Position numbers and translations under genes: made by a program. The notes under the pieces were generated by a model, which had not been told where the DNA came from, searched no databases, and saw only the letters and a program-made list of their open reading frames with translations. Shown here piece by piece: positions 21,304 to 56,499 of a stretch of 64,000 nucleotides of DNA. The stretch is taken from contig QPGO01000273.1 in NCBI GenBank assembly GCA_008632985.1, positions 1-64,000 of the forward strand, in the 5' to 3' direction. Source of the stretch: Psammoneis japonica. Lineage: Eukaryota. Numbering within the stretch: the first letter of the stretch is position 1; the number at the start of each line of letters is the position of its first letter.

Positions 21304-21580
21304 TGACAGAAAATTGAAGGCAAATGGCAAGAATTCAAACAATGACTCCTTGCTGCTGTCTAAACAGCAGATGAGTCTCCGCTCAGAGACCGTCACAGGA
21401 GCCGAAAGACGTGCAAGTCGGCACAATCGGGCTGCTGTTGTTGTTCTTGTGAGCCTTGTGGCTCGAAAGCAAACTGCATCGCGCGCAAACGCGCGGAACT
21501 AAAGCACACAAAACTGTGCGCGGCAAACTAAACAGTGCGCGACATTTCGCAGGCACCCAAATCCTGTTCAAATCCTGTCA
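21304..21580 (-). repeat. 3' LTR of copia copy 1
   Basis: Direct repeat of 28261-28537; purine tract (ctcccca on +) adjacent from 21581. Confidence 0.97.
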
Positions 21581-24500
21581 CTCCCCAGTTTGCTTGAGGA
21601 GTCACAGAAACAGATTCGACTTCGGATGAAATGAAGTTCCAGAACATGAGGGGGCGGAGAAGGTCCCAGATTTGGGAGTGACCCCAATGCTTGCTGAGGA
21701 TGTCAGCAGGGTTGCGGGAGCCTTCGATGAAGTGGAGCTCAAGGCAACCAGAGGCAATTGCCTCACGCACACGGTGGAACGACAGTGCGGGGTGTCGCTT
21801 GTGTAACTTGGAGTGCGGGATGGTGGCACTGTCTACAACCGACTTGTTGTCACCGAACATGTGACTGACATTGCGGATCGGGACGCCAAGGCAACGCAGG
21901 GTGATGCGCAGGTCAACAATCTGCTCAACACAAGTCCTTGCGGCAACAAATTCAGACCCGCAGGTCGCAGTCTCCATGGTGGCTTGCTTCTTAGAGAACC
22001 AATCAGCCGGGAATTTGTTGAGGAAGTGGAGCATTCCCATGACAGAGCGTCCGGTGAGCATGCAATGGTGCAAGTTTGCATCGACACAGTGGGTGGCAGT
22101 GACGAACTTGCCAAGGGGCGGTGGAGCGTCCTTCGGGATCATCTCTTCTGCTTCGCCGCACACGGAATGCATCCATTCACAGGCCGGAGCAGGGAGATCC
22201 GAATGGTCGGGCTCTTCCGTGCAAACGCGGAGAGCGCCGTGTCGCATCCTGGAGAGGCACCCACAGACGCGTTTGGCATGATCCAAGTGGCCTTGACGGG
22301 GCGCAGCTCGGAAGCTAGAGAGTGACATGACGGCCGTGGCAATGTCAATTCGACCAAGGGACACTGCCCATTGGAGTGAACCAACAAGAGACTGGAACTT
22401 GTGAATGCCATCGGGTCCCAGCAGTTCGGAAGTGTCCAGTTCGGGGTGGTCACCCTTCTCCAGAGGTGACAGGGCGTTGGTGGCAGGTTTCTCCCCAAAC
22501 AGTTGGGCGCAGCTGTCGACCATGCGCTCGATGTGCTTGCGCGGAGACAGGCACAAGGTTGCGTCGGGATCCCGGGAAAAGTCGCAACCCAGATGGAACT
22601 CAATGGGTCCCGCACCCTTGAGCTTGAACTTGCACTTTTCCGTGAGAGTGTCGACGAAAGATTGAGGGTCCTTCATGGCAATGGCGAGGTCATCCACATA
22701 AACGGCAATGTGTTCACAGTGGTCGCCATTCCTGCGCATCCAAATGTCGGGTTCGGCGCGGCAGGGGAAGAAGCCTTCAGCTCGCAGGCAGTCGGCGAAG
22801 CGCTCGTGCCAGCGGAGACCGGAGCTGCGCAGTCCACACAGGGCCTTGTGGATGACAAGGATGTGTCCTTCGAGTTTGCCAAATTCGGGTCCGGCTGCAA
22901 TGTAAAGCTTCTCCTTGGTGGTGGCTTCAAGGCAGGCATTGCCAATGTCGGTGGCCCATGTCTCCAACTCGTTGAGTTCGGCCAGGAAAATCATCAGCCG
23001 AAGGCCACGGAGGGAGACTGCTCTGGAGTGGACACTGTCGACAGGTGCATCCGTGAGGTGCCCGTCGGCTACGAGTCGTGCCTTGTGGCGACCGTCGTGT
23101 TTCACGTCGTACACTGGGTGCACTCGGATCTTCTTGTGTCCCGCAGGAGGAGTGGAAGACTCGAAGGGCCCGCAGTCATGGAAGACTTCACATTCATCGA
23201 GTTGGTCCATCTCGAGATTAGTTGCGTCTCCCCATTTGCAGTTGCCGTTGCGTTCATCTAGTGACATGGCATGTTTGCAGTTTCGGGGAACTTCGCACCC
23301 GTGCTTGCAGCGAGGTGCAGTGCGGAAGGAGCGAAGCTTGGCTTGGTTGGCCATGCGAAACAGCTTCTTTTGGCCTCTCGATGGTGCGGAACCGCTTCCA
23401 GCCATCCGTGTCGAGGAGTCCGTTCTCTCGTGCATGGATGGCGCAGGTGACGGGGTCATCCTTGGCGATGATGGCAAGAGGCTCGGACGTGATCTCCCCA
23501 CTTTCCCATTCAAGCATGATGTTGTAGCTTGAGCCTTTCCAGGTTGGGTCGTGAGGCTTCAGAGGTCCTTCGTGTGACACGATGCATCGAAATTTCCAAA
23601 TGGCAGTGTCTTCATCTTCTTGCTCAATGTGATTCATGATGTCATTGCAGGCAAGGACTTCCTTGTGTTCGTCGTTGTTGACAGAGCAGATGAACTTGGT
23701 GAGCTCGGGATTGCCGTTCACTTTCCATTCGTGGTCTTCGACGGCCTTGACCATGCGAGCTCTGTGGCGTTGTCCGTCCTCTTGTGGCTGCATGAGGAAG
23801 GTGCGTCCAATGATGTCTTGCGGATCGAAAACTGGCATCTTGGGTGTCCTGATCTCCCCATCAGGAGAATCGACGGGGTTGTTGACAGGGTTGTCGTCAT
23901 GGCAAGATTTGATGATGGGTTCAGGTGGCTCCCCATCAGGAGGATCAAGACGCAGGTTTCGAACGGCAGGATCGGTGGTGGCGGAGTGGACGTTGGACCG
24001 GCAGAGGATCTTCTGAGTCTCGTCAGAGAGAATCTTGAAGGTCATCTGGTGGCCGACGTGCTCAGCAATGCCAACGAAGCGTCCACGCAACTCACGGGAT
24101 TCGGACGGCCAATCGGAGTCATCCAGGTGGAAGCACACGGGTTCCCACCAGCGAAAGCCAAGCAATGGGCTGATGTCCGGGGTGGAGCCAGTGAGAGTCT
24201 CAAGGGGCGTGCGCCAGTGGAGACGTGGGGACGCTGTGTGGTTGAGTGTGAAGCACACACACATGAGTGCCAGCAGCCATGTGTGGGCGGGCGAACCAAA
24301 ACGATCCATGACAGTGTTCGCCATGCGCTTCATGGTCTGGTGTCGACGCTCGGCAAAGTTTTGGTGTTGCTGGTGAGGCTCACTTTGCCAGCTGGAGATG
24401 AAGAGGGCCTGTAGGATCCCGAGCACTTTGTTGCTGATCTCAACTTGAGCACGGTCGCCAATGAGTTTGGATGGGGCACCACGCTCACGGATCTGATCCT

Positions 24501-27321
24501 CGAGTGTGTTGACAAACTCTTTGTCCGTCTTGGTGCCGTAGACGTCAGTGACGGCAGACTCAGTGCCAACAAACAGTTGGGCACTGGTGCAACCAGAGTC
24601 GACGGCCGGGGTGTCGGCATGGACGGTGTCAGTGGTGACAGGCTCGTTGCGGCGGTGCACATTAAGGGCGGGGTTGGGTGATTTGCAGGCCTTCCTAAGG
24701 TGTGCACCGGCGGGCATGCGGGCGCACTGCGTGGTGCAGTCAAAAGTACGACGGACCGTGTCGGCAGGTGGGAAGCCAAAGTGAGGCCGAAGAGACTCGA
24801 AGGGCAGGTCCTTGGGCTGTGCAGTGCGCTCCGGGGGCGGGACGTCGTCGTCCTTGGGGTCAATCGCGTGCAGATGACACTCGCAGAACACGTCGTCGTT
24901 CGGAATGAGGTGATCATCGAGGGCGGACGCGTGATCGGCAGACAAGGAAGCGGACATGATGGTCTCGTTGACAACGACACGATGACGGTGGTTGCCGCAT
25001 TCGTCAAACTGCAACATGCAGCTACCAACAAGAGTCAATGCATCACGGCGATGTGTCACAGCCTTTAAATGTCACAAAGGGCGTGACAAAAACAACCTTT
25101 TGTCTGCATGCATGCTTCAAAACAGGTTGGCAGTGGGATCGTCCTGCAGGTCAGAGATCGCGTCGTACCACTGGTCGTCATCAGTGACAGAGTGATCGAG
25201 GATGGAAGGATCCCATGTGTCATCACCGGTGAGGATGACATGGGGCAGGGTGTCCCATTCGGCGTCAGTGCAAGGTCGCATGGCAACACAAGGCAGGCCG
25301 GCCTTGATGTCAATGGGGATGACATGGCCATCAGGAGTGGCAACACGTTGCAAGCCGTTGGGCACCTTGACAGAGCGATCGTTGACATCCTGTTTGTGCC
25401 ATTCGAGCTGGCCGCAGGAATGGATGGTCTTGCCCTTGCCCGTGTGTGCGCACTGATGGAGGATGGCGATGATGGGACCACGCTGGGTCTCAATGACGGC
25501 ACCAGCGGTGACAATGGGGATGTCCACCAATTGATGGTCGTCAATGCCCTGAACGTCGACTTGGCGAGAGGTGCGTGCAATGACGCGAACGTCGTTGCCA
25601 GCAATGCCGCCGTTGGCCCCACGATCGACTAGAGTGCCAGTGCGTGTGGAGCGATGAGCAGAGGCAGAGCAAATGACATTGTGGTTGTCAACGCGGCGGC
25701 AAGTGCGGCCGTTAAGTTCTGTGTCATCGGCAGAAGCTGGCGGGGCAGAGGGAGCGGCGGATGGCCCCGGTCGACCAGCATTGGGGGCTTGGTTAGGAGA
25801 CAACAGACGGCGCAGATCACCGGGTGGCAGTGGCTTGCGCTTGGTGAGGTGTGCCAGGATGGGATTGTCCGAAGTGGCACCCACATTTGGAGTGGAGTCA
25901 TCAGAGTCAGCAGGAGTCGTGTTGGACAAGTTGACATCACCGTTGCTCCCAAGGCGTTGGTCGTGAAGGTTGGCTGTAACGGACTCATGGCAGTTGCTGT
26001 CTCGCGGGTTACGGGGAGGCGGACGAGAATGCTCAAGGATGATCGCCTTGGAGGAATGGGGCAACGAATCCCAAATCCGTTGGTGGTCGGGAGGGAGACG
26101 TTTCCATTGGTCACTGGTGAGGCTGGGACCACGGGTGTGGGCAGCATTGGCCTGAAGGACGTCAATGTCAATGTCAATGTCGTAGAACACATCGTCGGAC
26201 GGTTCCTCGGAGCAGACGTCGTGTGCGCATGTGGCGCGGCGGGGAGCTCGAGGTGTCATCTTGGGTTGAAACGCACTGTCGCATTGGGCTGCTGCGGAGA
26301 GGAGCAAGCCACAGCATTGATCGCATGTGAGGCTCTTGCCACTCTGCGTGCGATGCTGATCAGCTTGGTTCTTGACAGCACGGAGTTCCTCGACAGGGTG
26401 CACGGCATTCTCGAGCATGACGCGCTTCTGTCCTTCAGAGAAGTGGTCACTGGCCGGGATGAGTGCCTCGCACTTGCGCAACTGATCTTGCCAATGAAGG
26501 ATGAACCCGTGGGTCGGACCTTTCCAAGTGCCATCACCAAGACGTGCGGTGGTGAGGTGCGTCAGCAGGGTGGAGGACTCGACAGATGCGCGGGTGGAGG
26601 CGAGCGCGCACTCAGACAAGGCGCGGCAGACGGTCTGTGCGTCAGAAGACCCCACATTTTCGCGGATGAGAGCCTTGCCCTTGTTGGTGAGAAGGATGCG
26701 TTCGAAGACGGCGAACATGTGCTTTTGCAGTTCAGCAAAGAGCAGTTTGTCTTCGGGGCTGGTCGGTTTGTACGACGAGTCTGGGGTGCACTCGACGTCT
26801 TGGGCACGGGCTTGTGCCACAAGTGAGGTGTGCCAAGTGTGCCACTGCTTGTTGGATTTGAGAGCCGTGAAAGCGGTGGGATCACGCTTGATGCCTCGCT
26901 TGAAGTCCCACACCGGGTTGCGTGCCTTGGTCGGGTTGGTGACATGCGGAGGTGCGAGGGGTGAGCTGCCGATGGACACAGAAGACATGCAGTCGGGGCT
27001 GAGGCGGTGGGCAAGGAACTCGTCATGCGTGAACAACGAGGAGTCATTGGCAACGTCAAGACCTTTGTGTGCTTTGACAATGCACAGACCAACTGGAGCT
27101 GCTAACATGTTCTCACAACCACGGGGCAAAGGGATCACATTGGTGCCATTGTCGTGCTCAAGCGAGTCGATTTGGGACGGTGTGAACGTGAACAGTTCTT
27201 GATGCGAGTCCGTGCCGTCTTGTGCCAAAGCCAAACGGAGAGGGCTCCCAGCACCTTGGGCAAGCACGGTTCCAACAACGTGCTCGAAACCATCGGTTTG
27301 TTGCTGACGAGTGAGAACCAT
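21528..27321 (-). pseudogene. gag-pol polyprotein of copy 1, broken by a 110-bp insert carrying a stop and a 2-bp deletion ~23373
   Basis: MVLTRQQ start; protease LVDRGANGG; integrase TTDT/IGDRA/NFAERR; RT KARLVADG and YVDD; RNase H VDANL/GSEF/GDNKS/NPADILSK; many Tyr->Cys/His. Confidence 0.93.
25010..25119. mobile_element. 110-bp TG..CA insertion with 4-bp TSD (solo LTR or MITE)
   Basis: Absent from copy 2 (~51050); flanked by AAAC at 25006-25009 and 25120-25123; imperfect terminal IR; internal hairpin 25054-25088. Confidence 0.8.
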
Positions 27322-28243
27322 GGCAGACAAAAGTGGTGTCAGGACAAACAATTCTTGTTGGGAAGCGAGGGCAGACTTGAAGCTTGGGTGAGAACAGACT
27401 TGACTTGAAATGGGCTTGACTTGAAATCTTGATCCATCTTAAAATCAGAAGTCGCCGGGCTTTGCCATCCCGTTCGTTGTCAAGTGCTAAACTTCCTGTC
27501 TGGTCCGCAGAGTTGTGCCGGCACGTCCGAACCCGCAGCCAGCGGCGCTTTGGGTTGCTTGCGAGCGGAGCAGCGGGTTGCAAACCCCTGCAGGCAAGCT
27601 GACCAGAGGTGAACAAGACCCCCAAACCGTTCTCATTTTACATCGGTTGGATTTCCCGATCAGGCTGGCCAGTTGACGCAGGCGTTGGGCGCTGTGGACG
27701 AACGAACAAACGCGGGAAAGCACCCTCGCCCCAACGCAGGCTGCAATCACGGCTGCTTGCTCTCACAGTCGTCCTCGTGGACCCAGTGGAACTGCAGAGC
27801 ACCAGCAGTCCGGGGTGGATCAGGTGCAATGGACTCGGTGTGCTTGTAGAGTGGTGGCAAAACCGCAGTCCGAAGAGTGGGTGCAGGTTCTTGGCCGTGA
27901 AGACATGTGTGTGTGCACATGTCTTCAGCGACGAAGATCCTTGAATGTGCAGGGTTCTTGACCGTCAACCGATGAATGGGCACATCAAGGGATGAGGATC
28001 AAGGACAGACTTGGATGTGACCGTTGAATGCATGTCTTCAGCGATCAAAGGCAGTGCAATCAATCCAGATGTCCAGCGGCAAGGAGACTTGACGGTGACG
28101 TTAACTTCCTGCCGATGCCCTGGCATTGAATGCGCGTAGACTTGCCGATGTGTGTAGAACATGTGCGCAGGTCCACGTAGAATTGAAACAGCATTGTTGG
28201 TGAATCAACGACGATGATGGCGGTTGCTCAATGGGTTGACAAT

Positions 28244-28260
28244 GAGCAAGACTGTTGATC
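28244..28260 (-). promoter_or_regulatory. Putative primer-binding site of copy 1 (GATCAACAGTCTTGCTC)
   Basis: Immediately internal to the 5' LTR; same as the copy 2 site except one TA->CA change. Confidence 0.6.
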
Positions 28261-28537
28261 TGACAGAAAATTGAAGGCAAATGGCAAGAGTTCAAACAAT
28301 GACTCCTTGCTGCTGTCTAAATGGCAGATGAGTCTCCGCTCAGAGACCTTTGCAGGAGCCGAAAGACGTGCAAGTCGGTACAATCGGGCTGCTGTTGTTG
28401 TTCTTGTGAGCCTTGTGGCTCGAAAGCAAACTACATCGCGCGCGAACGCGCGGAACTAAAGCACACAAAACTGTGCGCGGTAAACAAAACAGCGTGCGAC
28501 ATTTCGCGCGCACCCAAATCCTGTTCAAATCCTGTCA
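28261..28537 (-). repeat. 5' LTR of copia copy 1
   Basis: TG..CA, 277 bp, repeat of 21304-21580. Confidence 0.97.
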
Positions 28538-29720
28538 ACAAAGTGCAAATCATGTGTCAGTTGACTGGAACTTTTGCACGTGGCCAGGTGGTTTGCAGAT
28601 GATGGTCAAGCACCTCTTGGATGGCAGAGCAGATTTCTCTAAGATCTGCCTCTCACTCTTTCTTGCTGGTGCGTGTGTTGCCACTGCTGCCAGTTTGTGG
28701 GGAGGTCTTGCATGTTTGTCACCTCTTGCTGTCTCACCACATCATCAGGTTGTGGCATTGTCTTGTTGCATGCTCTTCTGTGGTGCAATCTTGTCCTGGC
28801 TCACTTGGCTTGTGCAAGCCACAAACAAGCCCGCTGCATTTTTTCATCCTCGATTTGTTTTTTCTTGGCATCATGCCCACAAAAAAGTGCTGCACTTCTT
28901 CTGTGTGTGTGTGTTCAAAAATCAATGCACGAACCTCAACCATGGTGAATCTCCCACAACCACTCAATGATGCATGAGTCAACCACATGCTCTGCAAGAG
29001 TTGTCCAAACAATGTGCGCAGCGCAACTTTCATTCTGGGCTGCTTCTTTGATGATCCAAAACACACTCAAGCCAAGGAAATTGTCTGCATGCTGGCTCAG
29101 AGCTGTGGCATCAATGAGCTCATTTTGCCCCAGTTGATCTTGCCAACGTTTAACCACCACCTGTGCTGCCAAGAAAGATGTGCCAAAGGTGAAAGCTCTG
29201 AAAGATGATGATGGCTCATGTCGTTTCTCCTGTCAAATGCTCCGTCACAAAATCCAACTTGCTGTCATGCATGAAAGTGGTGGCTGCAAGACCAGAGTTG
29301 AGAAAAGACCAAGCAATGAAATGCATCTGTCATGATTGGAGCGAGGAGCTCTCTGATGACACCCTCTGCTGCACTCTCCAAAGCGTGGTGCACCCAGCGC
29401 TGCACCTGTGACCAATGCCAAGTCGAGCTCCATTGACAACCACCCATCTGTGCTCAACCCAAGCAAAGATTGGAAAGCCCAGTGGGAGGAATGGGGGGCA
29501 GGAGGGCTGGCAGAAGAAGGCATCGAAGCACAGCTGCCAAAGAGAAGGGGGAGCTGGCGGGTGGAGTGGAGAAAGGGAAGGTGGTGCAGCCATGCACAGG
29601 AGAGATGGAGGCAGCAAAGCTTTGATCGGCCACTGCAACATCAGGGGCACCAAAATAAATAAAAGAGTTGGCAAGGCAGTTGTCGACACACAGGAGAGGA
29701 GGTTGTCAAAGGAATGAAAG
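28538..29720. other. TpA/CpG-depleted degenerate sequence; right flank of copy 1
   Basis: Composition as in the other hypermutated domains. Confidence 0.65.
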
Positions 29721-30013
29721 GATTCTCCTCTAGCCGGCCGGCCCATCCCATCCGTCCCGCCCGGCCCGCCCACCGCACCGTGCACGATCAGCACGCGCGC
29801 TCACTCACAATCAGCTAGAAGTTTTGGGTTATGAGCACCAAAAAATCTGATCATGCGGATGCATGCTAGCTAGCTAGCATCATGGCCCATGGCCCATGGT
29901 GGTCCTGAAAAAAAAAAAACACTGAGAGCATTCGCAGCGTTTATTGCCGAGCTCATAATGGTGTAAAGCATCGCCATATTAGTCTATATTAGGATTCGAT
30001 AGAAATAACCACA

Positions 30014-30863
30014 ATGTTCTTTGGTGAACGCGACAGCGACCGCCCCCCACCGGACAAGACTGTGACGTTTTTCAACATTTCGAAATCCACCTTGATTCGC
30101 TATGCAGGAAAGATCTTGGAACCTCCCCACTCTTTGCCAGTTCAACTGGTCGAGACTGATGGTGGTTTTGTGAATACCTCCATTGTTGAGGCTACGGAAA
30201 AGAATGGACTGGTCATTCGTTGGGATCTTACCGGGCGGAAAGTCCGGCGCCTATGCCGACGCACTCGGGATGTCAAGAACCTTTGTGATTTCTGATTCCT
30301 ACTTTTCACAAAGCAGCATGCTGGTAGATTCTGAGGGATTCCTCAAACATGGCTTGGAACCATTGAAAATGTTTTACGAGAACGGTGGGACCATTGTGGT
30401 CATGTGCGAAGAAGGCATCTACGCGATAGGCAGACCACTGGAGTCTGAATTTGGATGCGACTGGCACCTCAGCGGAGTTGAGAATGAAACATGTATCCCT
30501 ACGGAAACAGGTCGAGAGCACTTTGGAAGCGAGGTGGTTGAAGAGCTTTACGCGGGCAAGGGTCATTTCATGAGTGTACCAGACGGGGAAGGCCTGTATC
30601 ATGTCAAGACTCTGGACTATGAAGCATACAAATCCGAATACTGCGGTCTGTGCTCTGACGAAGAATACTCGGACGACGAGCTTGAACATTGTCGCCAATC
30701 CTATGAGAAGTATGTCCGCGAAAACAGGACTAAATGCCTTTTGGCAGTCCACGAAAATGACAAGGGTGGTCGCATTGTGTGGATGGGAGATCGGAATCAG
30801 GAAGACCCCAAGATGCGTGGACTGTTTGCTAAGCTTTGCAGCGAAGAAATTGCGGAATGTTGA
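30014..30863 (+). CDS. Hypothetical protein; two overlapping ORFs joined by an apparent frameshift ~30190
   Basis: ORFs 30014-30295 and 30183-30863 have normal composition and read as one protein. Confidence 0.5.
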
Positions 30864-31184
30864 CATTGCATAGCACAGCAACCGCAAAAGGAAGATAAAT
30901 CAATTTCATATCGTATTTGGATTTGCGTCATCCACATTCTCAGTAAAACACAAAAGGGAGACTGTTGTCAATGCGTAAGCGCAAAAAAACATATAATTTG
31001 TCACTTTTATAGGGTGGGCTCTAAACATGCATTCACAAGCAAAAATAGAATGGGAGAAGAGGCGAGTTTGACAGATATGTCTTGTTGAAATACATTGTTC
31101 AAGGATGAGCCCCATGGTCTCATGATTCCGCAGGGCGTAGCCCTAGAGTGTAGATCTGAAGTTCCTTGTCAGCTTGTTTCCAAA

Positions 31185-36800: not shown

Positions 36801-39800
36801 ATATCACTTTCTGTGTCCAGCTGAACCAATTTTCGTTTCATCTATGGCGCCAGCATGTTCCTCAAACAAGCCAGTTTAGGACGGCTCTCGAGGGCGATGC
36901 CGATTTCCTTGCGGAAGATTCACCTCTGCCCATTGTGAATCTCTTTGAATTCCAGACGAAGGAGCTAGAACTGGGTCTGGACTTTCAATACACAAAAGAA
37001 ATGAGGCGTATCGTCTGGAAATGCTGTGTATCTGAGGTGGTTTTGAAAGCTTGTGATTTTGGCGCGGAGTGCACGGCACACCGGAGAAAATCGGTAGCGG
37101 CTCGATCCACTCCACAAGAGAATGGCGAAACAGATGTGATGAATACTGAACCTATGATGGTGGAGCTGATCAGTCTGAAAGAAGACTCATCTTTGGAAGG
37201 AATGAACTCAGCTACTTCGCGGTCTTCGGAGAAGTCTGATATTTCGATTCGGGTCGAAGAGCAACTTACTGCGTCGCGTTCGATTTCGTTTGCTAGTGAA
37301 ATCTCAACGGGTGGAGCTGTGGATCTGCGGAAAGTGGACGAAATTGAGTGCTTGATCTTGCTTCTGTTGGAGTCACTCCTTCTGCCTGCTGGCAATGCTC
37401 ATCGCCACCAAGAACATCATTCGCGGGATCATCTAATATTCCCTCCAGGTTCCGTTGGTGCATTGTTCATCACATTGATAAAGAAATTGATTTCGGCGCT
37501 TAGAACAGTAAAGCGAGGTATTGAAGATAGTAATGTTAGCAATTCGGGGTCGAATATCGGGGGTATCGCGCGTTGGCTGCAACAATTTGTGAAGAAGCTG
37601 TTGCCGAAAGACACGGGGGCGGCTTTGCTTCGGATTTCCACAAGGGACTTGGCATTCTTTATTCCCCGTGTCCGCCATAACAAGGCGAGCAACGGTGAAG
37701 CACGGTCATATTGTCTCTTGCTCGATGAGGCAACATTTGCCACCGGATTCATTTCGTCAGCTCTAGGAGATAGCGAAAGTGGCATAATGCAGGTGCTTGC
37801 CAACCGCGAAAAGAAGTGGTTGGACGTATTGGGCGGTAGTGAAGAGGGGTTCCATGTTACAGTTCAGTCATGTCAAAGTCTTCATTCTTTATCGTCGGAG
37901 GGCGCGACGAAGACAGTCGAAGCTTCTCTTCTGCCTCGGTTCGAATCCACCTTTTCCTTCCGTCCCTCCGGTGTGTCGGCGTCCACTGGGAACACCATTC
38001 TCTCTGTGGATGGTACCGAGAAGCTGAGGGAGATCTATGTATCATTTTCAGCCTTTAGTTCTCGGTGGGTACGCGCAGGAGTCAGACTTTTTAGGGTGTT
38101 ATCTTCCCTCGTGTCGAACGATGTAAAAATTCCAAACAAAACGATTAAGCTGCCGGGCAATCACGAGGGGAATACTGAACTTTCTCCGTTTGATGAAGCC
38201 TGTGTCGATGTTTCAACCTCTGTCCGGGCATGCAGGTCGTTGCTATGTTCCATCAGGAAGTCTCTGACATGCCTTGAAATGGAAAAACTTACATCTTTAA
38301 GGGAAAAGCAGTGCGAAGTAGATCGCCTCCGGTGTGTCGTGTTCTGCAAAGAAAGAGAGCGCGTGGCTGCGCTCGCGTTGACGGCCTCACAGGCAATGGG
38401 TTGGATTCGGACAGGGGGTACTCATCAAAGTGGGCAGAGAACGTCTACCGTAACATCGATGTGGCGTCAATGGGCAATTCTACGGCGGTCACTTCTCGTG
38501 CTGTTCAAATCTCCAGGAGGTATGGAAACCATGATTCCTTCGATGACAAAACGGCTCTTTCTTTTCATGTTCCTTACACGCTTGTCTGCATCTTCCATCG
38601 TAGCTGAAGCTGTCGACTTTGTGTCATTAAAAGGGGCGCGTCTGTGTCCGCTGGAAGGTGGTCGAAGCAAACGCGACGTTAAGCTGGGATTTGCTCTTGT
38701 TGAAAGTGGGGGCTTGACACGGTTCTTCATTGTACCAACTGTGACGGAGTACGAGATTTGGATCAGTGAACTCCGAAGTGCTATTGATTTTTACTCTTCA
38801 CCCCGGATGGCAGAAGACAGCACATCTTCCATGGTCCAACAAGAACCTGTCATTGAAACACCTTTGTCCGATGCGCAAGCAGGCGGTAGAAGTGACGAAC
38901 AAGTTGTGAGCAGGCATGGGAGCCAGAGTGCAACATACGGCACTTCTTACCTTCCTGATGTTCCAGAATCCTTGGCGGTATCTGGGGAGCATCATTTGGT
39001 AAAGGCATCTGAGTTTGGGTTGAGCGATACAGATGGCTTACAGCCCAATGACCAGAAAGGAAAGAGAATAAGACAGAAACTTGCTGGAACAAAAGCGAAA
39101 CTTGGTTCTGCTGTCCAGGCTGCGAAGCAGAACGTAAAAGCTGCCTCTGAAAAACAGCGTTTGCGTCGCTCGCAAGGTGGTGACGATGATATTTCCGTAG
39201 CAAGTGACAATTTGTGTGAAGCTAATAACAACCAGGATAAGCAATCAAATTTCGTTGCCCAAGAAGGCGTCAGCTCAGTTGACCAACAAGCCGAAGACTT
39301 TTCTGGATCGCCGAGACGAGGGAAAATGTTCCGACAACGGTTTGTAGGAACCAAGGCCAGGCTAGGATCTGCGGTTCAGTCAACGAGGCAGAACCTGAAG
39401 GCCGCAGCCGAGAAACAGCGTCGATACCGTACGTCATCGGAAGACATAAGTGTCGGGTCAACAGATGACATGATACATCATGGAGAATCTTCAACGCCCT
39501 TTCCAGCGCATGTCGTTCCGAGCGATGTGTTTACACAGCATCCCGGGACAGAGGATGCTGATTCACGTAGTCAAGAAGTACCTGCTTCTATAGCTGAAAC
39601 CGCGGACAGTGCGGTCTTAAAGGAAGAACATATCGACACCACAGAGTTGATGGTTTCTACCGACGACATTGACGAAGACCAAGAAGGTTCACAAGGCACA
39701 GGAGTTTCGTCAAACGATATGAGCAATGACGATGTCCTCAATAGTGTAAACAATGTACGTCGAAGAGGACAAATCCGCAAGAGTGTCACGAGAATTGGTG

Positions 39801-41663
39801 CTGCTGTGAAAGCTACTAGATCGAATGGTGGACCGAATGACAACAAAGGAAGGTTCAACTTGCGACGATTTTCTAAGAGTTCATCTGGCAGTTTCGGCGG
39901 TGATGGCCGAGACTCCATCAAGATGAGGTCTTTGCATGCTGGTAGTGGAAGCGTTGATGCCGATATCGATCGCGAAAGTCAGTGGCAAGAAATCCCACTC
40001 ACAAAGATTGAGGGACATTGGATTGTTCTCGTTGAGTATCCAAATTCCATCGAGACACCCGAAGATGTGTCTTCTTCGGTTTCTGATAACGATAAGATGA
40101 GAAGCGCCGGTTTGGTTGGTGAAGGCGATCCCACCCCAGAGTCTCTACCTGTAACGGAAGAAAAGGACGATGAAGATGCCGAGAAAGATCTTCCAGCGTC
40201 GTCTTTAGAATCCCAAACAATTGCCAAAACTTCAGTTGACAAGGGCGAACAGATTCTCGCGCCAGTCTCTCAGTCGGCATCAGACACGATGGGAAATCCA
40301 ATACTTCAATCATTCCGAATTCGTGTCGTTTGCGCGAAGCTCCCAGAAGGTGCCATCGAGAACCGTGCGACGCCGACCAGCGTCGAAAGGAACCTTTCTG
40401 ACATATTGGCCTTACACACTGTGGTCTCTGAATCTATCGTTCGTGTCGGCCCACCAGCGATAGATGTTACTGATTCATTCAACAGTGAATCGAGAGAAGT
40501 CACGAGTAATAGTGTGGCGGAGCGTCTGGGGCTTTCTCCGTGGGATAATGTGAGGCTGACAGGAAGCATGCTCGAAAGCATTTTGCGTGCTCCATCCACT
40601 TTGGATGAGTTCGAAAAGATACGAAAGTACCTGTGTGAGTTCGACGATTTCGCATCCCGTCATGATTGGCGGTTTATTCGAATTGGTCCCGGTATTATCT
40701 GAATACTCATCTTTGTCTTTCTGGACTTGAATTGACGTCCGTGCTTTAGGTGAAATTCTCGCGGAATTTATCAACTCTACCCTGGCATGTCCGCTTCCTC
40801 TTGACGCGCAGGAGTCCTTGAAGGAATTTCTTGGTATCGAAGAAGCAGTCGTCAAAACCGTCGAGAGCAGCGAGCCACTTGATGAATGGGACAATGGCTC
40901 GATGAAGGAAAAAGAACAGAAGTCCAAGTCGACTACTGAAGACATTCTGTCGATCTCCGCAGCATGTGAAGCAGAGCTTGTACGAGCAGAGAGTCGAGGT
41001 TTGGTGGCAAGAAAGCTTGCTGAGTCTGTCACTGCTGTGACAACCAATGCAACAATTGAAAAATCAGACCTACCTTTACATGGTTTGTCGTCGAAGGCAG
41101 CAGAGCCACTTCTTCCTCCGTCGATTGCGAACGCTCTCCATGCCTCAATGCATCAGGCGCTAATGAAGGCAATGGCTGAAAGAGACGAAGCACATGCGCA
41201 GTTGGTGTCGAACCGCGTTCTTCATGCACACGAGTTGGAACAGGAACGGAAGAAGGTGGATCGCTTATCAAAGAAATTTGAACTGTTGAAAAGCGAAGCC
41301 CCGGTAGGGGGCGCGTCCTTCTTTTTAGGTGGGGATGAAATTGCGGCGTTGGAAAAGGAACGTATGAGAAGTTACGAAAAGCAACTGAGTCAAAATAGTG
41401 ACGCTGAATTGATTTCACTCTGCCAGCAGCTGGCGAGCGAAATATCACAAAGAACGGAAGCAGCTCTGGAGATTATCAGATTAAAGGAATCACGCGAGAT
41501 TGAACGCGCTAGTGACTTGGCAGAGCGAGACGCACTCAAGAATGAATTACAAAAATACAAGGAGATGCTTGCTGAAGAACAGACAAAAACTGAGGAGGCG
41601 CAACAAGAGGCCGCTAAGTGGAAGGCTTACCACACAGACATGTCTAAAGAGGAGCACAAGTAA
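33869..41663 (+). CDS. Very large protein with chorein-N (VPS13/bridge-like lipid transfer family)-like N-terminus, PH-like domain and C-terminal coiled coil; introns 33914-34017, 35362-35450, 35724-35794, 38520-38603, 40635-40749
   Basis: Spliced start MENFVLGFFQEQLSK/FIVGFRKEQVNANLLNGKGEITDVSLN; frames join across GT-AG introns; WRQWAILRRSLL...EYEIWISELRSAI is PH-like. Confidence 0.75.
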
Positions 41664-42024
41664 GAGTGAATAGAGCCATAAGTCTTGTAGCTGAAACTAC
41701 TTCAAAAAACTACTGCATCTCTTGTGACGACGACGACTTGCTCCTCCGTTCGCTCACTTCTTCATTGTCCGTCGTCCACGCATCTCCTCCCATTCGATCT
41801 TGTATCTTTCCCGCGAAAATCTTAGAGGAAAGTTCTGATCATTAAAAGGACTAAGTGTACGGATAAAATTGTATGATCAAAAGATCCGAGAGTCGTTGAT
41901 GTAGCCAGCACTGGTGCGCGTGATGCGTCGCGACAAAACCCAAACCGTTTTGCTGTCGCCATGGGCGAGACATCAATCGAAGAAACTGTTATCCTCGCGG
42001 GTTGATTGACCGTGACTAGAGAGG

Positions 42025-42696
42025 ATGGTGAAGGTGACGGCTGTCAGTAAGAGACGACGAAACCAATGGCCTCCGGGGTCTCGAGCACGCTGCGTAGTAA
42101 TCTCATTTTTTGTGTTTTTTCTTGTGGGCATTTGTCTCGTGGCTGTACGGATACGAGTGCCGTCTAGTCTGAAATTGCGAAAGGCTAGACCTTTGCCTCA
42201 GCTCGTCTCGCGTCGACATGACGTCGTGATTCAAGCAGACGTTCGAGGCAATTTGGGACCTGCCTCTGTGTTAAACCAAGATCCTCCTGGCACCGATTGG
42301 ATCAAGGACCGCTGGCAAGCAGCGTCTGACATGCATGGAACAGCCATAAAAGGTGCGCATTGGGTATCCATGGACTTTTCGTCTCCAATCACCTTGAGCA
42401 GCATTATCCTTGACTGGGAGGCTGCCCTCTCGGAAGACTACAAGGTGGAGGTAAAGAATCCAAGTGAGGGCGCGGATTGGACTGTAATCTTTGACACCAA
42501 CCAACATGAGTTTGAATCACGCGAGTTTGGTCAGTCGCCTGGGGTGAAGGCCAAAACGCCTCTTCACATTGTTCACAACATTACTGCTTTTGAAAAAGTG
42601 GATCCATTTACGAGATTACGAATATGGATACGGAGTTCAACCCACGGGTGGGGCGTTTCGTTGTGGCGAGTCGACGTCTATGGATGTTATGAGTAA
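42025..42696 (+). CDS. Membrane-anchored discoidin/F5-8 type C (galactose-binding-like) domain protein
   Basis: TM helix, then DRWQAAS, HWVSMDF, ILDWEAALSEDYKVE, WGVSLWRVDVYG. Confidence 0.7.
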   Translation: MVKVTAVSKRRRNQWPPGSRARCVVISFFVFFLVGICLVAVRIRVPSSLKLRKARPLPQLVSRRHDVVIQADVRGNLGPASVLNQDPPGTDWIKDRWQAASDMHGTAIKGAHWVSMDFSSPITLSSIILDWEAALSEDYKVEVKNPSEGADWTVIFDTNQHEFESREFGQSPGVKAKTPLHIVHNITAFEKVDPFTRLRIWIRSSTHGWGVSLWRVDVYGCYE

Positions 42697-42763
42697 CACC
42701 GTCGAGAATGGAGCTCGTTCAAACTTTTTAATGGCTTCTGAAGTCTACACAGAGATTCACTGA

Positions 42764-44610
42764 TTATTTATATGCAAGAGATTGGACTTTCACGGGAGAC
42801 GCAGATGCTCGTCGTTCACGCTCGGCCTTTATCCATGCCTCAATATCTTCCGCGGCAATTTGTTCTTCGTCATTGTCCTGTGGGTAATGTACGTCATAGT
42901 AACCTGTTTCAGCATTGTAGTCAACAATGTTTCCTGAAAACCACCCCCACGTAGGGAAATTCTTGTAAATCACGGTGCCAATGGCATACTTTGGTTCCCT
43001 CCTACTAGCCGCCACGGATGCTTCGTTTGTTTTGGGACTATCCCCAGTGCTGTCAGCTGTGCTAGACTTGCGTAGCTTTTCTTCCACGAGATATCGTTGA
43101 AACTTTCCTAGTTTTGCAATTGGGTGCCGCATCACCCAGCCATGACCCTTGTCCTCCCCGTGCTTGTCCTCAAAGGCCTTGGCCCGACTGTGCATGCTTT
43201 CAAAATCCATTGCGAGATTCACGCTCTCGCCTTTCATAAACATGATTCCATCTGGCCAACCCACGTAGGATATCCCCTCTCCTTTTGCCAGCATTTTCAC
43301 CTTGCTCATGACGGAGCGAGCGTTTGATTCGGAACAACCGTCCACGTCTGCAAGCCAAGTCTTGATTTCCTCGATCCAACCCTGCCTCGATCGGAGCTGG
43401 TCTTTTTCTTCCTCCGATAGATTCAGTGGTTCCACCGTCTGAGTAGCACTCTTTTTTGGTGTGCTTCGTTTGGCTGCTGCTTTGGCTGCCGGTTTTGCTG
43501 ACGCTTTGGTAGATACAGGCACCGTGTACTCGCTTGTTGAAGAAGTTAACGACTCCGTCTCGTCTTCAGTGCTGTCGTCCGTTTCCGTATCTTCCAGCTC
43601 CTGATTATACTCAGTCTCTAACGAACGAGCTACTGCCTGAGAAAGACTAGGAGACACTTCTGTAGGGCTCTCAGTGGTGGTAGACTTGCGTAGCTTTGTT
43701 TCCACAAGATATTGTTGAAACTTTCCTAGCTTGGTAATTGGATGCCGCATGAGCCAACCATGTCCTTTGTCTTGTCCGTAGGTGTTTTCATAGCGTTGGG
43801 CCTCACTGTGCATTCTTTCAAAATTCATGGCAAGATTGATAGGTTGATTTTCCATAAACACAACGTGGTAAGGCTCTCCAGTTTTCGAACCTTGTTCATG
43901 ACGGTACGAACGTTGGATTCGGAACAGCCGTCTACAATTTGAAGCCACGCCTCGAATTCCTTAACCCAATCCTGCCTCGACGCTAGCTCATCTTTTTCTT
44001 CTTCCGACAAATCGAGCCAGTCCAATCGAGCGGTTGCTCGCTTTTTCGGTTTGCTCCGTTTGGTAGCTTTTTTCCGCGGTTCTTGGGATACAACTGTTGT
44101 CGCCTTGCGTTTTGCAGGAGTTGAAAAATGATCTTCGTCTTCACCAAAGTCACTTTCCTCATCACTCTCTTCTTGCAACCAACCATTGTCTGCTTGAGAA
44201 GGGGGCGTCACTAACGCGGACTGTGTGGAATCGTCTTGTTGTGTCGCATCCCCTTTCTGTTCTTTCGGAGCAACCAAATCATGGTCAGATTTCTGTTGCA
44301 ACAGAACACAGGCAAAGGCACAAATGTTTGGTCTGAGTGGATCAAATCCATCTTGCTTTTTGCACCCAGGACACGCAATGGTGGACAAGGTGGGAGCGGA
44401 TGTTTGGAGACTGGCAGTCCACTCGTCAAACCAGCCGGAAAAGCACGGCTTGCAAACGCTGTATGCGCAGTGCAAACACGAGACGGGAAGTCGGGCTTCC
44501 GAAGAGTCTTTCTGCTCGTAATCCGTGTCGAATGAAGAGTTGCAGTTTGGGCATTGATATGGATTGTTCTCCATGGTTGTTGCTGTTATTGTTATTGTGT
44601 TTGATGTCAT
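42764..44610 (-). CDS. RING-like zinc finger, two copies of a ~100-aa repeat domain and a Tudor-like C-terminus; frameshift/deletion ~43875
   Basis: CPNC..CLHCAYSVCKPC..CPGC; repeat ending DKGHGWxMRHPIxKLGKFQxYLVE twice; IGTVIYKNF..GWFSGNIVDY...YYDVHY.DNDEE. Confidence 0.6.
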
Positions 44611-44889
44611 ATAAAAATTAGAGTCGCAGGATCAAAAATTCCAAAAAATGAAAATTCCCGCCATAAAACCAAGAAAGAAAACCCGGAGTCACATACAGGC
44701 GAAAACCAAAGCCCGGAAGCAAATTTACCGCTTACTCCTTTCTAATAACTCTACAGAGGTCGCAGTATAAGATTCACGTAGAAATCTCCATCGTCTCACG
44801 CTTCTCGCTTCCGCAACACTCAACACGCACAAATCAAAGGGTTGTCGTAGTCAGCACAACGCAAGAGCTGTACATCGTCTGTAAACACC

Positions 44890-45481
44890 ATGGGCCCTCC
44901 TCCAAGCGATGACGTGAAGATTGGTAAGGAACAGATGAATGATACTGTTTGCAGTTTGGAAGAGGCAGCGGCAATGACATGTTTCTCATCGTCTCGTCTT
45001 CTTCTTTCGTTGTTATTCAGTGATTATGCGCACAGTTGGTGGCGAAGTTGGATCCGCCTCCTCCTTGGCTCCCAAGATTGGGCCCTTGGGTCTCAGTCCC
45101 AAGAAGGTTGGTGAGGATATCCAAAAGGCCACCTTGGACTGGAAGGGTTTGAACGTGACTGTCAAGCTCACGGTCGTCAACCGCCAGGCCACCGTCACCA
45201 TGATTCCCTCGTCTTCGTCTCTCATCATGAAGGCTCTCAACGAACCCGTTCGTGACCGCAAGAAGGAGAAAAACATCAAGCACGACGGTAACTTGACGCT
45301 GGATCAAGTCATTGACATTGCTCGTCAGATGCGTGACCGCAGCATGGCCAGGAAGCTCTCGGGTACCGTCAAGGAGATGCTCGGAACGTGCAACTCGATT
45401 GGGTGCACCGTGAACGGCGAGAGTCCTCGTGATATTCAAGCTGGTATCGATGACGGCGAGATTGAGATTCCAGAGGAGTAA
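44890..45481 (+). CDS. RPL12: 60S ribosomal protein L12 (uL11); intron 44924-45020
   Basis: [45 protein letters not shown]. Confidence 0.97.
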
Positions 45482-45759
45482 ACGACATGAAGAGGGAATT
45501 TATATGTGACGGTGAAACTTTGGGTGCAATGAGCTACTCTCTGGGTACGTTTTGCAATGTTGATGGGATTGAAAGCGGGTATGCCCTGATTCAAATACAG
45601 TAGAATTCATAACGTCACAATATAGAATCTATTAGAACCATGCGTTTCACCAGCAGTGCATGTATTTTAGGTTTCGGGCGGCCATCAAAATAGGGGTTTT
45701 CTAACGATAGAGCACCAGGTGCTGCGAACATAGCATGTTTAGCGGCTTGGTGCTGTGCA

Positions 45760-47632
45760 GGATCACGCACATTGAGTGGGCTGTGAGGAGATGTGTCTTG
45801 TTTCGACAGCCAGATCTGCCACCATTAGACAAAAATCCACCCGCCGCATGAGAACACACCTGATGCAACGCTCTTGGCAACAAAACGGAACTCTGGCTGA
45901 GAAGCTGTGGCAGGCCCAATTTCAACTGCTTTGTTCACAAGCTGTTGTGGACAGTTGAGAACCAGCCTCCTGCAACTTCCATGGGAGAGATGGCCAGTCA
46001 GCAACAACAAGAGTCGTTGGTGCACTCTGGCTCCTTTCTCTCTCACAAGTCCATTGAAGAATGACAGCAACCTAGAAGTGCAGCCAAGCAGATTTGTTCA
46101 TGGCAACAGGAGGGTTGTGCATTTGACCCAACAGGAGACAACCTGGCCATTGCAACTTGGACAAGTGATGCCTGCAACAAGTTGACAAGGGTGGTGTCTT
46201 GTTCAGAAAACAGCTCAAAAAACTCACTTTCTTTAAAACTAAAAACTGCCTGCAACACATCAAGCCCAACATGGAAATGGACAGCTGGGCCAACATGAGG
46301 GTTGTTGGTGTGTGAACCAAGAAGAAGTCAAAACAAAATCATGGCCAGTTTTCTGCAAAAGACAAGTGCTGGTGCTCTTTCCTCAAAACAAAGGTGCTTC
46401 AAGCAGCAGAGCACACACCATGAAATGCAGGCAGGTTCTGGCTTGTGTGGCTGCATGACCAACTTGATCCCACAGAGCTCTTCCAGAAGGAAGTTGGCAA
46501 ATGCCTGGCACACAAGTTCAGCTGAGCACCAAGAAGGTGGTGACAAGCCCTCCAGCACAACAGCTGGCATCCACCCTTGGCTCAAAGCATTCCATGCAAC
46601 ACTTCTTGATGCACTCCAAAGGCAGCATGGATGCAGCAAGGCTTGCTCTTCAAAGCACAATCTTCAACACCACAAGGGCCAACTGCATGGACAAGTTGCC
46701 AAGCTTGTGCCTGAATGCTGACTCTAAATTGGTGGCTCTGCCAAGTCCAAGCATGCCAACATGCTTCCATTGCCTTGTGCACAAAGCACTTTATGTGGTG
46801 GGAGCAGCCAGCACCAGAGGATTGAGTCTCCAACAAATGACTGCTGGCATTTGCAGGCCCAGAAAACCAGATGATTTTTCAGCTCATGGAAGTGGATTTG
46901 TGGCATCCACAGCAGACAGGTGGAAAAGCAGCAGTGCACTGCCCACAGGCCAGCCAGTCAGATGCTCAACCAGTGGTGCACAGTTGCTTGCAAGTCTCTG
47001 CCAAAAGCACAAGAAATGTGTGGAGCTGTTCTCTTTTCAACGTTGCAAGTTTTTGACGTGTGACAAATGCTGCTGGGCACATGGCTGCACAGCAATGGCC
47101 GCTGAGGCAGGGAGCCACTTCCCAAAGCATTTGGCCATGCAGAAAAAGCAGAGGTTGCCAAGTCACAGCCAAGGGCAATGATCTGTCAGGCCTCAAGCAC
47201 TGGACATGGACAAGATTCAGAGAAAGCTGGTGCTGTGCCATGTTGTGTTGTTGCCACTTGCAACCATGGAAAACTGGCTGGGTGCTGGGGTGGCATGCTG
47301 CCAGCATTGAAGACACCTTCAGGATCAAAACAATGACAGCTGCCTCCCTGCAGTGTGGCTGGAAGATCTGACCAAGGATGCAGCCAAATGGACAATGGAC
47401 AGTGAACAACTCATGCTGACCAAGGCCATGCAGGTGTCAGCACAAAATAAGTTCAACAGAAACAAGGTGTTTGCAGCCACTGGTGACAAACAACAAAAAT
47501 CACAGCAGCTGCACCATGGCAACATAAATGACAATTTCTCAACAATGACAACAACACCTTCAAGAAACATGCAACACAAACTCACAGACAAAAATGTTGA
47601 ACATTCCAGCAGAACGGGCTTGTCAGCGGGCT
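45760..47632. other. TpA/CpG-depleted degenerate domain; left flank of copy 2
   Basis: Near-absence of TA and CG starting about 280 bp after the RPL12 stop. Confidence 0.8.
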
Positions 47633-47908
47633 TGACAGGATTTGAACAGGATTTAGGTGTGCGCGAAGTATCGCGCGCTGTTTAGTTTACCGTGCACAGT
47701 TTTGTGTGCTTTAGTTCCGCGCGTTCACGCGCGATGTAGTTTGCTTTCGAGCCACAAGGCTCACAAGAATAATAACAGTAGCCCGATTATACCGACTTAC
47801 ACGTCTTTCGGCTCCTGTAACGGTCTCTGAGCGGAGACTCATCTGCTATTTAGACAGCAGTAAGGAGTTATTGTTTGAATTCTTGCCATTTGCCTTCAAT
47901 TTCTGTCA
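47633..47908 (+). repeat. 5' LTR of copia copy 2
   Basis: TGACAGG...TCTGTCA; 12 substitutions versus the 3' LTR by manual alignment. Confidence 0.97.
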
Positions 47909-47925
47909 GATTAACAGTCTTGCTC
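47909..47925 (+). promoter_or_regulatory. Putative primer-binding site GATTAACAGTCTTGCTC, complementary to a tRNA-Asn(GUU) anticodon arm
   Basis: The reverse complement GAGCAAGA-CTGTTAA-TC contains the Asn anticodon loop CTGTTAA. There is no TGG, so no pairing with the tRNA CCA end. Confidence 0.65.
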
Positions 47926-56488: not shown

Positions 56489-56499
56489 CACTTTTTGAA

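Follow-up and report, generated by a model that had tools for sequence, protein, structure and literature searches.

After integration, LTR retrotransposons in the genome of the diatom Psammoneis japonica undergo an A:T to G:C change at TpA that proceeds site by site on either strand and leaves TG and CA as stable end states. The process runs at a few-hundred-fold rate, prefers a pyrimidine 3' of the A, leaks weakly to AA, CA and GA, and spares genes. As a whole explanation, this post-integration TpA loss coupled to a TadA/ADAT2-type deaminase acting on silenced chromatin stands, in our judgment, at about an even chance of being right.

TpA loss in two Ty1/copia-type copies and neighboring DNA

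The window, a 64,000-nt stretch of contig QPGO01000273.1, holds two copies of one family. Copy 1 (21304..28537, minus strand) shows heavy TA erosion over its whole length, retains one of 17 conserved Tyr codons, and lies in a perfect 5-bp target-site duplication (21299-21303 and 28538-28542). Its 277-bp 3' LTR (21304..21580, minus strand) adjoins the polypurine tract, its 277-bp 5' LTR (28261..28537, minus strand) keeps 4 of 16 TA-type sites, and its reverse transcriptase (RT)/RNase H frame (21528..23558, minus strand) matches RVT_2 (E 5e-24). Copy 2 (47633..54743, plus strand; perfect 5-bp duplication at 47628-47632 and 54744-54748) retains 6 of 17 Tyr codons. Its 276-bp 5' LTR (47633..47908, plus strand) is spared, with 16/16 TA-type sites intact, and the leader (47909..48630, plus strand) retains most TA; past the leader the TA count per 500 bp drops from 27 to 6, and the 276-bp 3' LTR (54468..54743, plus strand) keeps 7 of 16 TA-type sites. 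The integrase-RT-RNase H frame of copy 2 (51023..54520, plus strand) matches RVT_2 (E 1.2e-24); its putative integrase part, which may be the D-D-E-like stretch seen by eye before the RT, is placed by spacing and motif, and Pfam integrase had no match in the frames of either copy. The RVT_2-type RT, TG...CA LTRs, 5-bp target-site duplications and polypurine tract are Ty1/copia features. Membership of the CoDiI or CoDiII lineage is defined by clustering of the RT with CoDi reference elements (PMC2806351). The genome gives 24 silicon-transporter matches, which mark the host as a diatom.

Erosion extends into the surrounding DNA. The flank beyond copy 1 (28540..29500) shows CA/TG differences from contigs of a public DNA run, the flank immediately 5' of the spared copy 2 LTR (46000..47632) has a TA versus CA difference at 46792, and old eroded non-genic DNA occupies 54750..61900. 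In eroded DNA (54750..61900, 1-6000 and the two flanks) the observed/expected ratio is 0.08 for TA and 0.22 for CG, compared with 0.51 and 1.0 in genic DNA of the window. Twelve frames drawn from gag, integrase and eroded DNA gave no Pfam match above cut-off. The assembly yielded no second haplotype of the copy 2 flank and no second copy of most of the eroded flank at 44900-47600, a result that concerns present rather than past copies.

The preliminary description had reported two three-way sites, and both are confirmed at homologous LTR columns: CA at 21365-66, TG at 28322-23 and TA at 47847-48, and likewise CA at 21394-95, TG at 28351-52 and TA at 47818-19. Its count for the copy 2 LTRs, 12 of 276 sites differing by transitions only (9 TA versus CA/TG and 3 CG versus TG/CA), also holds; all nine TA lie in the 5' LTR, and 0 of 200 other bases differ. 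The LTRs of copy 1 differ at 15 sites, three of them by transversion. A count of the kind that it proposed, run on 47 LTR pairs of this family with target-site duplications (94 LTRs), found differences at 515 of 1502 bases in TA columns against 51 of 9401 background bases, an excess far beyond chance.

Where TA sites and background were compared in the same LTRs, 219 of 339 TA sites had changed versus 11 of 4597 background bases, an indirect estimate of an approximately 430-fold rate (243-869). Split by the 3' neighbor of TA, values are 0.45-0.47 for C or T and 0.21-0.24 for A or G. In freshly eroded 5' LTRs, A>G changes numbered 69 at TA, 8 at AA, 4 at CA and 3 at GA, alongside a single G>A outside CpG and a single transversion; the preference for TA over AA, CA and GA is about 20-fold per site (69 / 38 sites versus 15/162). 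TC was considered as a second target and rejected, TC>CC standing at 3.4 per 1000 versus 4.6 for TT and 4.9 for TG. Strand-coordinated runs did not exceed permutation (same-strand neighbors 0.54-0.56 versus 0.53-0.54 permuted). A second, slower CpG decay accompanies TA loss in the same DNA but in separate columns: TA changes are about 28 times CG changes per base (0.519 versus 0.019), and CpG decay rises with TA loss across copies.

TA loss acts in kilobase patches within an element. Mutation rates of the two LTRs in a single copy differ greatly, and the direction of this polarity depends on the family. This intra-element patchiness is new here. In the family of copies 1 and 2 the 5' LTR and leader are spared (104:31), and CG is retained with the same polarity (80:32). 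The third family has the opposite polarity, its 5' LTR being lost first (3:69); the second, old family has none (15:13) and the fourth a weak one (26:12), which rules out 5' sparing as a general rule. The state of the flank, considered as a cause of sparing, did not correlate (rho of -0.12 and 0.20 with flank TA). The 5' ends of copies also fall into two states, an observation that is only suggestive of on/off switching of the process.

Candidate chemistry

Adenine deamination of silenced DNA is our best guess for the enzyme chemistry, judged from sequence patterns. A zinc deaminase of the host, of the TadA/ADAT2 kind, would be brought to silenced, probably DNMT5-methylated, chromatin and would deaminate the adenine of TpA, the resulting inosine then being read as G by copying. 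Parts of an element in another chromatin state would be spared until silencing arrives; for the family of copies 1 and 2 these would be the leader together with the 5' LTR, where a bound promoter is likely. The outcome would be a RIP-like defense running in the chemically opposite direction, in which Tyr codons and TATA-like motifs are destroyed. Engineered TadA8e gives A>G at TA sites genome-wide (PMC13225742), and the P. japonica genome possesses TadA-like and ADAT2-like genes. These genes, however, are housekeeping tRNA editors, which counts against a candidate role, as does the wild-type Asp seen by eye at the motif position of the TadA-like protein. The Asn-bearing motif of the ADAT2-like gene is presumably common to ordinary ADAT2s. 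A deaminase of long single-stranded DNA would also leave strand-coordinated runs, and their absence argues against the deaminase, while the lack of general 5' sparing (3:69, 15:13, 26:12) counts against the proposed explanation.

A lesion on the A and one on the paired T are indistinguishable from sequence data. 5-Formyluracil pairs with G, and a TET/JBP-type dioxygenase that marked the T of TpA in silenced elements could yield T>C through the oxidized base, with location and timing as in the deaminase explanation, a route that we consider unlikely. Under this route the mutation would be linked to an epigenetic mark of silencing, and single-stranded DNA would be unnecessary, which fits the lack of strand coordination. 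In dinoflagellates, 5hmU is described as marking transposons with a preference for T in TA and TC (PMC11572971). In P. japonica, however, the TC>CC rate (3.4 per 1000) shows no increase, and a search of the genome, run without a positive control, gave 0 Tet_JBP matches.

Error-prone repair of T:G mismatches left by 5mC deamination in methylated elements appears improbable. Polymerase eta prefers WA motifs, and mismatch repair with a Y-family polymerase would place G opposite T at WA, as might be suggested by AA being the second-ranked context and by CpG decay sharing the polarity of TA loss (CG kept 80:32) and rising with it across copies. The 28-fold excess of TA over CG changes per base stands against such repair, however, as do the approximately 15-fold excess of TA over AA per site, the near absence of transversions and indels, and the lack of strand-coordinated clusters.

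Timing, direction and LTR dating

As for the change itself, the claims that it occurs on both strands and in chromosomal DNA are borne out. The 47 LTR pairs contain 263 TG and 250 CA products, target-site duplications and flanks are mutated, and young pairs exist that are identical and without change; therefore, the process is chromosomal and follows integration. Sites with CA in one LTR and TG in the other number 99 in 27 pairs of this family and 86 in 16 pairs of the second family, and TG and CA both occur as private products in 36 of the 47 3' LTRs. Three elements have TA changes inside their target-site duplications, two of ten LTR pairs in the third family are identical and TA-rich, and TA loss increases with private background changes (rho 0.55).

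Editing of RNA or cDNA during retrotransposition, or RT error, is largely refuted by these data, in agreement with the preliminary description, and we regard it as very improbable. A>G is the signature of ADAR, the genome has two A_deamin loci, and TG outnumbers CA in the element body (3181 versus 1982 in full-length copies), an excess that we ascribe to context and inherited synonymous changes, incompletely separated. Edits made in RNA would nevertheless reach both LTRs and one strand, whereas here both products occur within single LTRs, target-site duplications and flanks are mutated, and identical TA-rich pairs exist, with loss growing with age. TAG, the preferred context of ADAR, is disfavored.

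The preliminary description also took TA as ancestral, a polarity for which the LTRs of copies 1 and 2 alone are insufficient, since starting from TG or CG would take about as many steps at a single site. The conclusion itself stands, and comes instead from column statistics and protein outgroups. Across the 94 LTRs, 16 TA-type columns are without any CG, 22 CG-type columns are without any TA, and 32 fixed CA/TG columns are nearly invariant. In 37 full-length copies, CA and TG occur together in 540 columns, of which 211 also contain TA alone, 268 CG alone, 8 both and 53 neither. At 17 Tyr positions conserved in 120 outside homologues, the copies encode Tyr 195, Cys 305, His 124 and other residues 5 times, so that 429 of 629 conserved-Tyr codons are now Cys or His (an eighteenth, at which this family has Phe, was excluded). 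Conserved His, Trp and Gln never became Tyr or stop in the same copies compared with the same homologues, and new stops over 567 codons in 37 copies amount to one TAA and no TAG. The signature of TA loss is clear in one of the 120 homologues (7 of 18 Tyr positions Cys or His). The separation of TA and CG columns, the static CA/TG columns and the Tyr to Cys/His replacements therefore make TA ancestral.

That TA is instead derived, by a RIP-like change of CA/TG to TA or from an ancestral CG by two deaminations at CpG, would be about equally parsimonious at one site with three LTRs; diatom DNMT4 enzymes are related to RID (PMC9998398), and the P. japonica genome has many C5-methyltransferase matches. 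This reading is already refuted by the LTR columns, full-length copies and codons, in which TA is not gained at fixed CA/TG columns, TA and CG hardly ever share a column, and Tyr is lost with no reciprocal gain of Tyr and a single new TAA; we hold it to be extremely doubtful.

Public sequencing data comprised two DNA-labelled entries from one sample, with no RNA entry listed. At 28771-72, 28792-93 and 29272-73 the window has TG and contigs of the public DNA run have CA; this run may be the source of the window DNA and is thus not independent, and its contigs show neither level nor allele state. Misreading of modified bases in base calling or assembly has a next to negligible chance of being the cause: several one-base insertions relative to the run contigs indicate residual errors in the window, but a 15,033-base contig across eroded DNA has only 2 differing letters, and many short contigs repeat the T>C and A>G changes seen at TA sites of the LTRs.

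LTR-divergence dating does overestimate age, as had been proposed, with naive divergence 8- to 31-fold too high. Copy 2 has an apparent divergence of 4.5% yet 0/200 background differences, and 32 of 47 pairs show 10-17 differences. Ages are inflated, but rates are uneven over the element and TA saturates, and therefore the LTR clock is non-linear and distorted, not just fast. Saturation gathers copies into a false age peak, and both LTR and copy-to-family dating fail in such genomes. Diatom elements have been dated with one constant rate, giving an "ancient" peak in two araphid species (10.1101/2025.10.24.684338). Erasure of TAA and TAG also leaves long overlapping frames, a possible trap for gene callers.

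Comparison with known systems

A natural enzyme editing adenine (or thymine) at TpA in chromosomal DNA would be new biochemistry. It is possible, though we lean against it, that diatoms possess a chromatin-guided enzymatic A-to-G (or T-to-C) chromosomal editor, an equivalent of RIP shared with rhizarians across SAR that reads silencing per transposon kilobase and would count as a natural genomic DNA adenine editor, and that published "ancient" LTR bursts of some diatoms are its saturation artefact.

Like RIP of ascomycete fungi, the diatom process makes chromosomal, dinucleotide-specific transitions that ruin repeats and spare genes. Unlike RIP, which depends on RID, is triggered when duplicates pair before meiosis and makes TpA from CpA/TpG, it destroys TpA, and it erases the stop codons TAA and TAG rather than creating them; C:G to T:A change at CpA/TpG creating TpA was not found in the diatom elements. 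APOBEC3 and ADAR editing of retroelements acts on RNA or cDNA and is strand-biased and clustered. It shares with the diatom process a deaminase-type hypermutation of retroelements with a 5' neighbor preference, but the latter is post-integration, strand-balanced and unclustered, and strand-biased, clustered pre-integration edits were not seen. CpG decay of DNMT5-methylated diatom transposons (methylation described in PMC9998398) accounts for the CG-type columns and for the three CG sites that distinguish the LTRs of copy 2, but its per-base rate is about 28-fold below that of the TA process, and it affects other columns. The TadA8e base editor also produces genome-wide A>G/T>C preferring TA (PMC13225742); as an engineered enzyme, it shows only that there is chemistry able to give such a spectrum.

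The closest likeness is to the TpA-restricted hypermutation of viral inserts described in Bigelowiella natans (Mettrop et al., bioRxiv 10.64898/2026.01.13.699255), for which the preprint proposes ADAT2 as the enzyme. Its main text makes no mention of a diatom, LTR or stramenopile, and no report of a TpA signature in diatoms was found in the literature searched, which leaves out most subscription papers. In both organisms TpA becomes TpG or CpA on both strands of chromosomal DNA (TG 263 and CA 250 here), and A:T to G:C change is nearly confined to TpA. Silent foreign DNA is targeted in B. natans, a feature comparable to the TA ratio here (0.08 for eroded DNA, 0.51 for genic DNA), and TA-poor sequences bearing RT and DDE elsewhere in that genome resemble the diatom elements. 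The local rate in B. natans is about a thousand times that of its genome, compared with about 430-fold (243-869) here, estimated indirectly against the background of the same LTRs. B. natans, a rhizarian, has two integrated viral regions depleted of TA in part only, and its mutations were observed directly in mutation-accumulation lines, only some of which showed the process, whereas the diatom process is inferred from sequence comparison, with LTR pairs supplying an internal before/after control. The diatom data extend a TpA process reported once, in a preprint on rhizarian viral inserts, to ordinary retrotransposons and to a further lineage of SAR. Also, unlike that of B. natans, the diatom process has brought most non-genic DNA, along with LTR elements in the hundreds, to near saturation, and is distinguished by accompanying CpG decay, by its preference for a 3' pyrimidine, by weak leakage to non-TA contexts and by intra-element patches.

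Elements, sampling and the ancestral dinucleotide

The window carries two mutually inverted, 93-95% identical copies of family 1, a Ty1/copia-type LTR retrotransposon: copy 1 at 21304-28537 on the minus strand and copy 2 at 47633-54743 on the plus strand. Both have LTRs of the TG...CA form, are flanked by a perfect 5-bp target-site duplication and carry a reverse transcriptase of the RVT_2 type. Observed/expected ratios of TA and CG are 0.08 and 0.22 in the window's non-genic DNA and 0.51 and 1.0 in its genic DNA. The genome (91.4 Mb in 597 contigs), whose 24 silicon-transporter matches identify the host as a diatom, yielded 931 candidates for the family-1 LTR and 279 exact matches to its 3' junction. 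Our sample of 62 stretches comprises the 2 window copies, 20 chosen for LTR likeness to a TA-rich LTR and hence biased (set A), and 40 from the first 51 of the 279 junction matches, whose selecting motif contains neither TA nor CG (set B; 7 further matches were passed over because set A included them and 4 because they overlapped others or lay at an edge). LTR pairs were present in 52 stretches; five with a third LTR match were excluded, and 47 were kept (2 window, 18 set A and 27 set B). A perfect duplication is present in 46 of these, and the 37 full-length copies entered the whole-element alignment. Every analysis compares natural copies, by counts over pairs or over alignment columns.

The preliminary description had taken TA to be ancestral from two sites at which the copy 1 LTRs read CA and TG while the copy 2 5' LTR reads TA (21365-66, 28322-23 and 47847-48; 21394-95, 28351-52 and 47818-19). 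All six coordinates were correct, as was the count of 12 differences over 276 sites in the copy 2 pair, transitions only, at 9 TA (all located in the 5' LTR) and 3 CG; the copy 1 pair differs at 15 sites, 3 of them transversions. The three-LTR argument was insufficient alone, because at a single site CG or TG as the ancestor costs about the same number of steps as TA, but the polarity itself is upheld by wider column and protein tests. In the 94 LTRs, 16 TA-type columns hold TA, CA and TG with zero CG, 22 CG-type columns hold CG, CA and TG with zero TA, and 32 CA or TG columns are almost invariant. Among 540 columns with both CA and TG in the 37 full copies, 211 also hold only TA, 268 only CG, 8 both and 53 neither. 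Seventeen tyrosines conserved in an outgroup of 120 outside homologues appear in the copies as Tyr 195, Cys 305, His 124 and other residues 5 times (an 18th position, Phe in family 1, was excluded); intact tyrosines range from 0 to 14 of 17 per copy, and no copy keeps all 17. Conserved His (589/591), Trp (333/333) and Gln (222/222) were kept, and the stops that arose are one TAA and no TAG. Judged from these alignments, TA is the ancestral state, with CA and TG as end states. The column classes and conserved-codon counts exclude both RIP and double CpG decay as sources of the pattern.

Within the elements (21500-27600 and 49000-54500), long open frames on one strand overlap others on the opposite strand, as expected when TAA and TAG are erased. 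Short elements with family-1 LTRs and an unrelated interior of ~1.5-2 kb with tandem repeats (stretches L055, L061, L063, L067, L077, L082 and L086) are probably a non-autonomous derivative. Copia elements of family 4 (L141, L162-L177) have LTRs that start with AGT and end with ACT or AGT, not TG...CA, 5-bp target-site duplications, and at least two LTR lengths, ~234 and ~290 bp. An imperfect inverted repeat of ~150 bp (54980-55131) lies in eroded, TA-depleted DNA directly 3' of copy 2, and diverged tandem duplications occur at 43046-44063 (~430 bp at 69%, within a frame bearing a PTM/DIR17-like Tudor domain) and 60690-60985 (~150 bp at 76%). Across 28540-47909, public run X2 has eight GT..AG-type joints and thus behaves like RNA despite its DNA label; compared with run contigs, this interval of the window lacks single bases at several places.

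Timing, rate and consequences for dating

CA in one LTR faces TG in its twin at 99 sites of the set B pairs, and at 86 sites in 16 pairs of the older family 2 (from 32 stretches). The products are balanced over the 47 pairs (TG 263, CA 250), and both are private to the same 3' LTR in 36 of 47. One target-site duplication pair reads TA and CA, and two in family 4 differ via changes at TA steps, so host bases duplicated at integration were also altered. Two of the ten LTR pairs of family 3 are identical and TA-rich, which indicates that elements arrive unmutated. TA loss increases with private background changes (rho 0.55), background being LTR bases outside TA and CG sites. Contigs from a public DNA run, whose material may be the source sample, disagree with the window in its eroded flanks at one TA-versus-CA site and three TG-versus-CA sites; the differences could be allelic or due to subculture. 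One of the three TG-versus-CA sites is on a contig of 3.6 kb that extends into genes, and the other two are on a 262-base contig that may represent a different copy of a repeat. No strand coordination was seen between neighboring altered sites, and the pattern is consistent with chromosomal sites changing one at a time and independently. The proposal that the change follows integration is thus borne out by the twin sites, the altered duplications and the identical young pairs, and RNA editing, RT error and cDNA editing do not fit the both-product, duplication and unmutated-arrival evidence. We are all but certain that the TA change is real, correctly polarized and post-integration.

Twenty-three pairs have an almost unaltered 5' LTR; their 3' LTRs are altered at 219 of 339 TA sites, with 11 differences in 4597 background bases; relative to background, and not as absolute rates, TA changes ~430-fold (243-869) and CG ~16-fold faster. 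LTR ages are inflated as had been anticipated: naive divergence over the 47 pairs is 5.6%, 10 times the background value, with a ratio of 7.8 in set B and 31 in set A. Zero background differences are found in 22 of the 47 pairs, which yet differ at 2-25 sites overall, and 32 cluster at 10-17 differences, a cluster inflated by set A. These rate and divergence factors are probably floors, because the background includes assembly errors and non-TA leak. The TA process is a direct hazard for transposon dating.

Patchiness within elements

Surviving TA in set B numbers 104 sites in 5' LTRs versus 31 in 3' LTRs (p 2e-10), with the 5' LTR ahead in 17 pairs, the reverse in 5 and equality in 5; surviving CG numbers 80 versus 32. 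The spared zone of family 1 covers approximately the first 700 bases, and its sparing is near two-state among copies and independent of flank composition. As a general rule, 5' sparing is rejected, since families differ in polarity. The 5':3' TA survival is 15:13 in the saturated family 2, and a deleted family-2 element with a family-1 element nested inside it (L102:5275-7501 and L103:1-2435) has 16 TA in its 3' LTR versus 7 in its 5' LTR. In family 3, selected by RT score, which favors intact 3' parts, the 5' LTR and leader are eroded first (3:69), and no TA was lost over the 325 bases preceding the 3' LTR in 10 of 10 copies compared. Family 4 gives 26:12 from the 7 of 11 pairs kept, and 51:15 under a looser cut. 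From this patchiness, which the preliminary description had not noted, we infer a mutator guided by the local state of the chromatin.

Candidate mechanisms and known systems

Written as A>G, the change favors a 3' pyrimidine (0.45-0.47 vs. 0.21-0.24), and the TA left over in old DNA is enriched in TAA/TAG (114 vs. 50). Freshly eroded family-3 5' LTRs show A>G in the contexts TA (69), AA (8, all preceding a pyrimidine), CA (4) and GA (3), alongside a single G>A outside CpG and a single transversion; in family 1, rare non-TA T>C exceeds non-CG C>T 1.5-fold. The TA process is a base-specific A:T lesion. Deamination of the TpA adenine, which would yield A>G, is the leading explanation, at about even odds; TadA-derived editors are described as causing genome-wide A>G at TA (PMC13225742). 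The genome holds one TadA-like gene, one ADAT2-like gene, two A_deamin loci and many C5-methyltransferase matches, all expected as housekeeping or silencing genes. One frame (L094:316-1791) fuses a deaminase-like domain with a 2OG-Fe(II) oxygenase-like region, the latter read by eye. One of 27 DNA_methylase matches, L101, sits in TA-eroded DNA (4.5 TA per kb), which suggests a methyltransferase gene carried by, or situated in, mobile DNA. In Phaeodactylum, DNMT5 is reported to CG-methylate diatom elements (PMC9998398).

Thymine oxidation instead of adenine deamination is a live rival, though an unlikely one: dinoflagellate 5hmU is described as marking transposons and favoring TA and TC (PMC11572971). 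Here, however, TC context is not raised, and a search of the genome for Tet_JBP, run without a positive control, gave no match. Error-prone repair is a poorer fit and less probable still.

No diatom report of a TpA process was found in the literature searched. A 2025 preprint on diatom LTR elements applies constant-rate dating and, for two araphid species, describes an ancient peak; no mention of TpA or hypermutation was found in its main text. One of the 120 outside RT homologues, P0041, has Cys or His at 7 of 18 conserved Tyr positions, a hint from its sequence that the process may be present in another organism. In two viral inserts of Bigelowiella natans, Mettrop et al. (bioRxiv 10.64898/2026.01.13.699255) report TpA to TpG/CpA change at ~6e-7 per site per generation, and suggest transposons as further targets. 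The TpA signature is the same here, and thus the TA process is not of a new kind. Unlike the process as described in that organism, it occurs here in another lineage, acts genome-wide and near saturation, and is patchy within elements.
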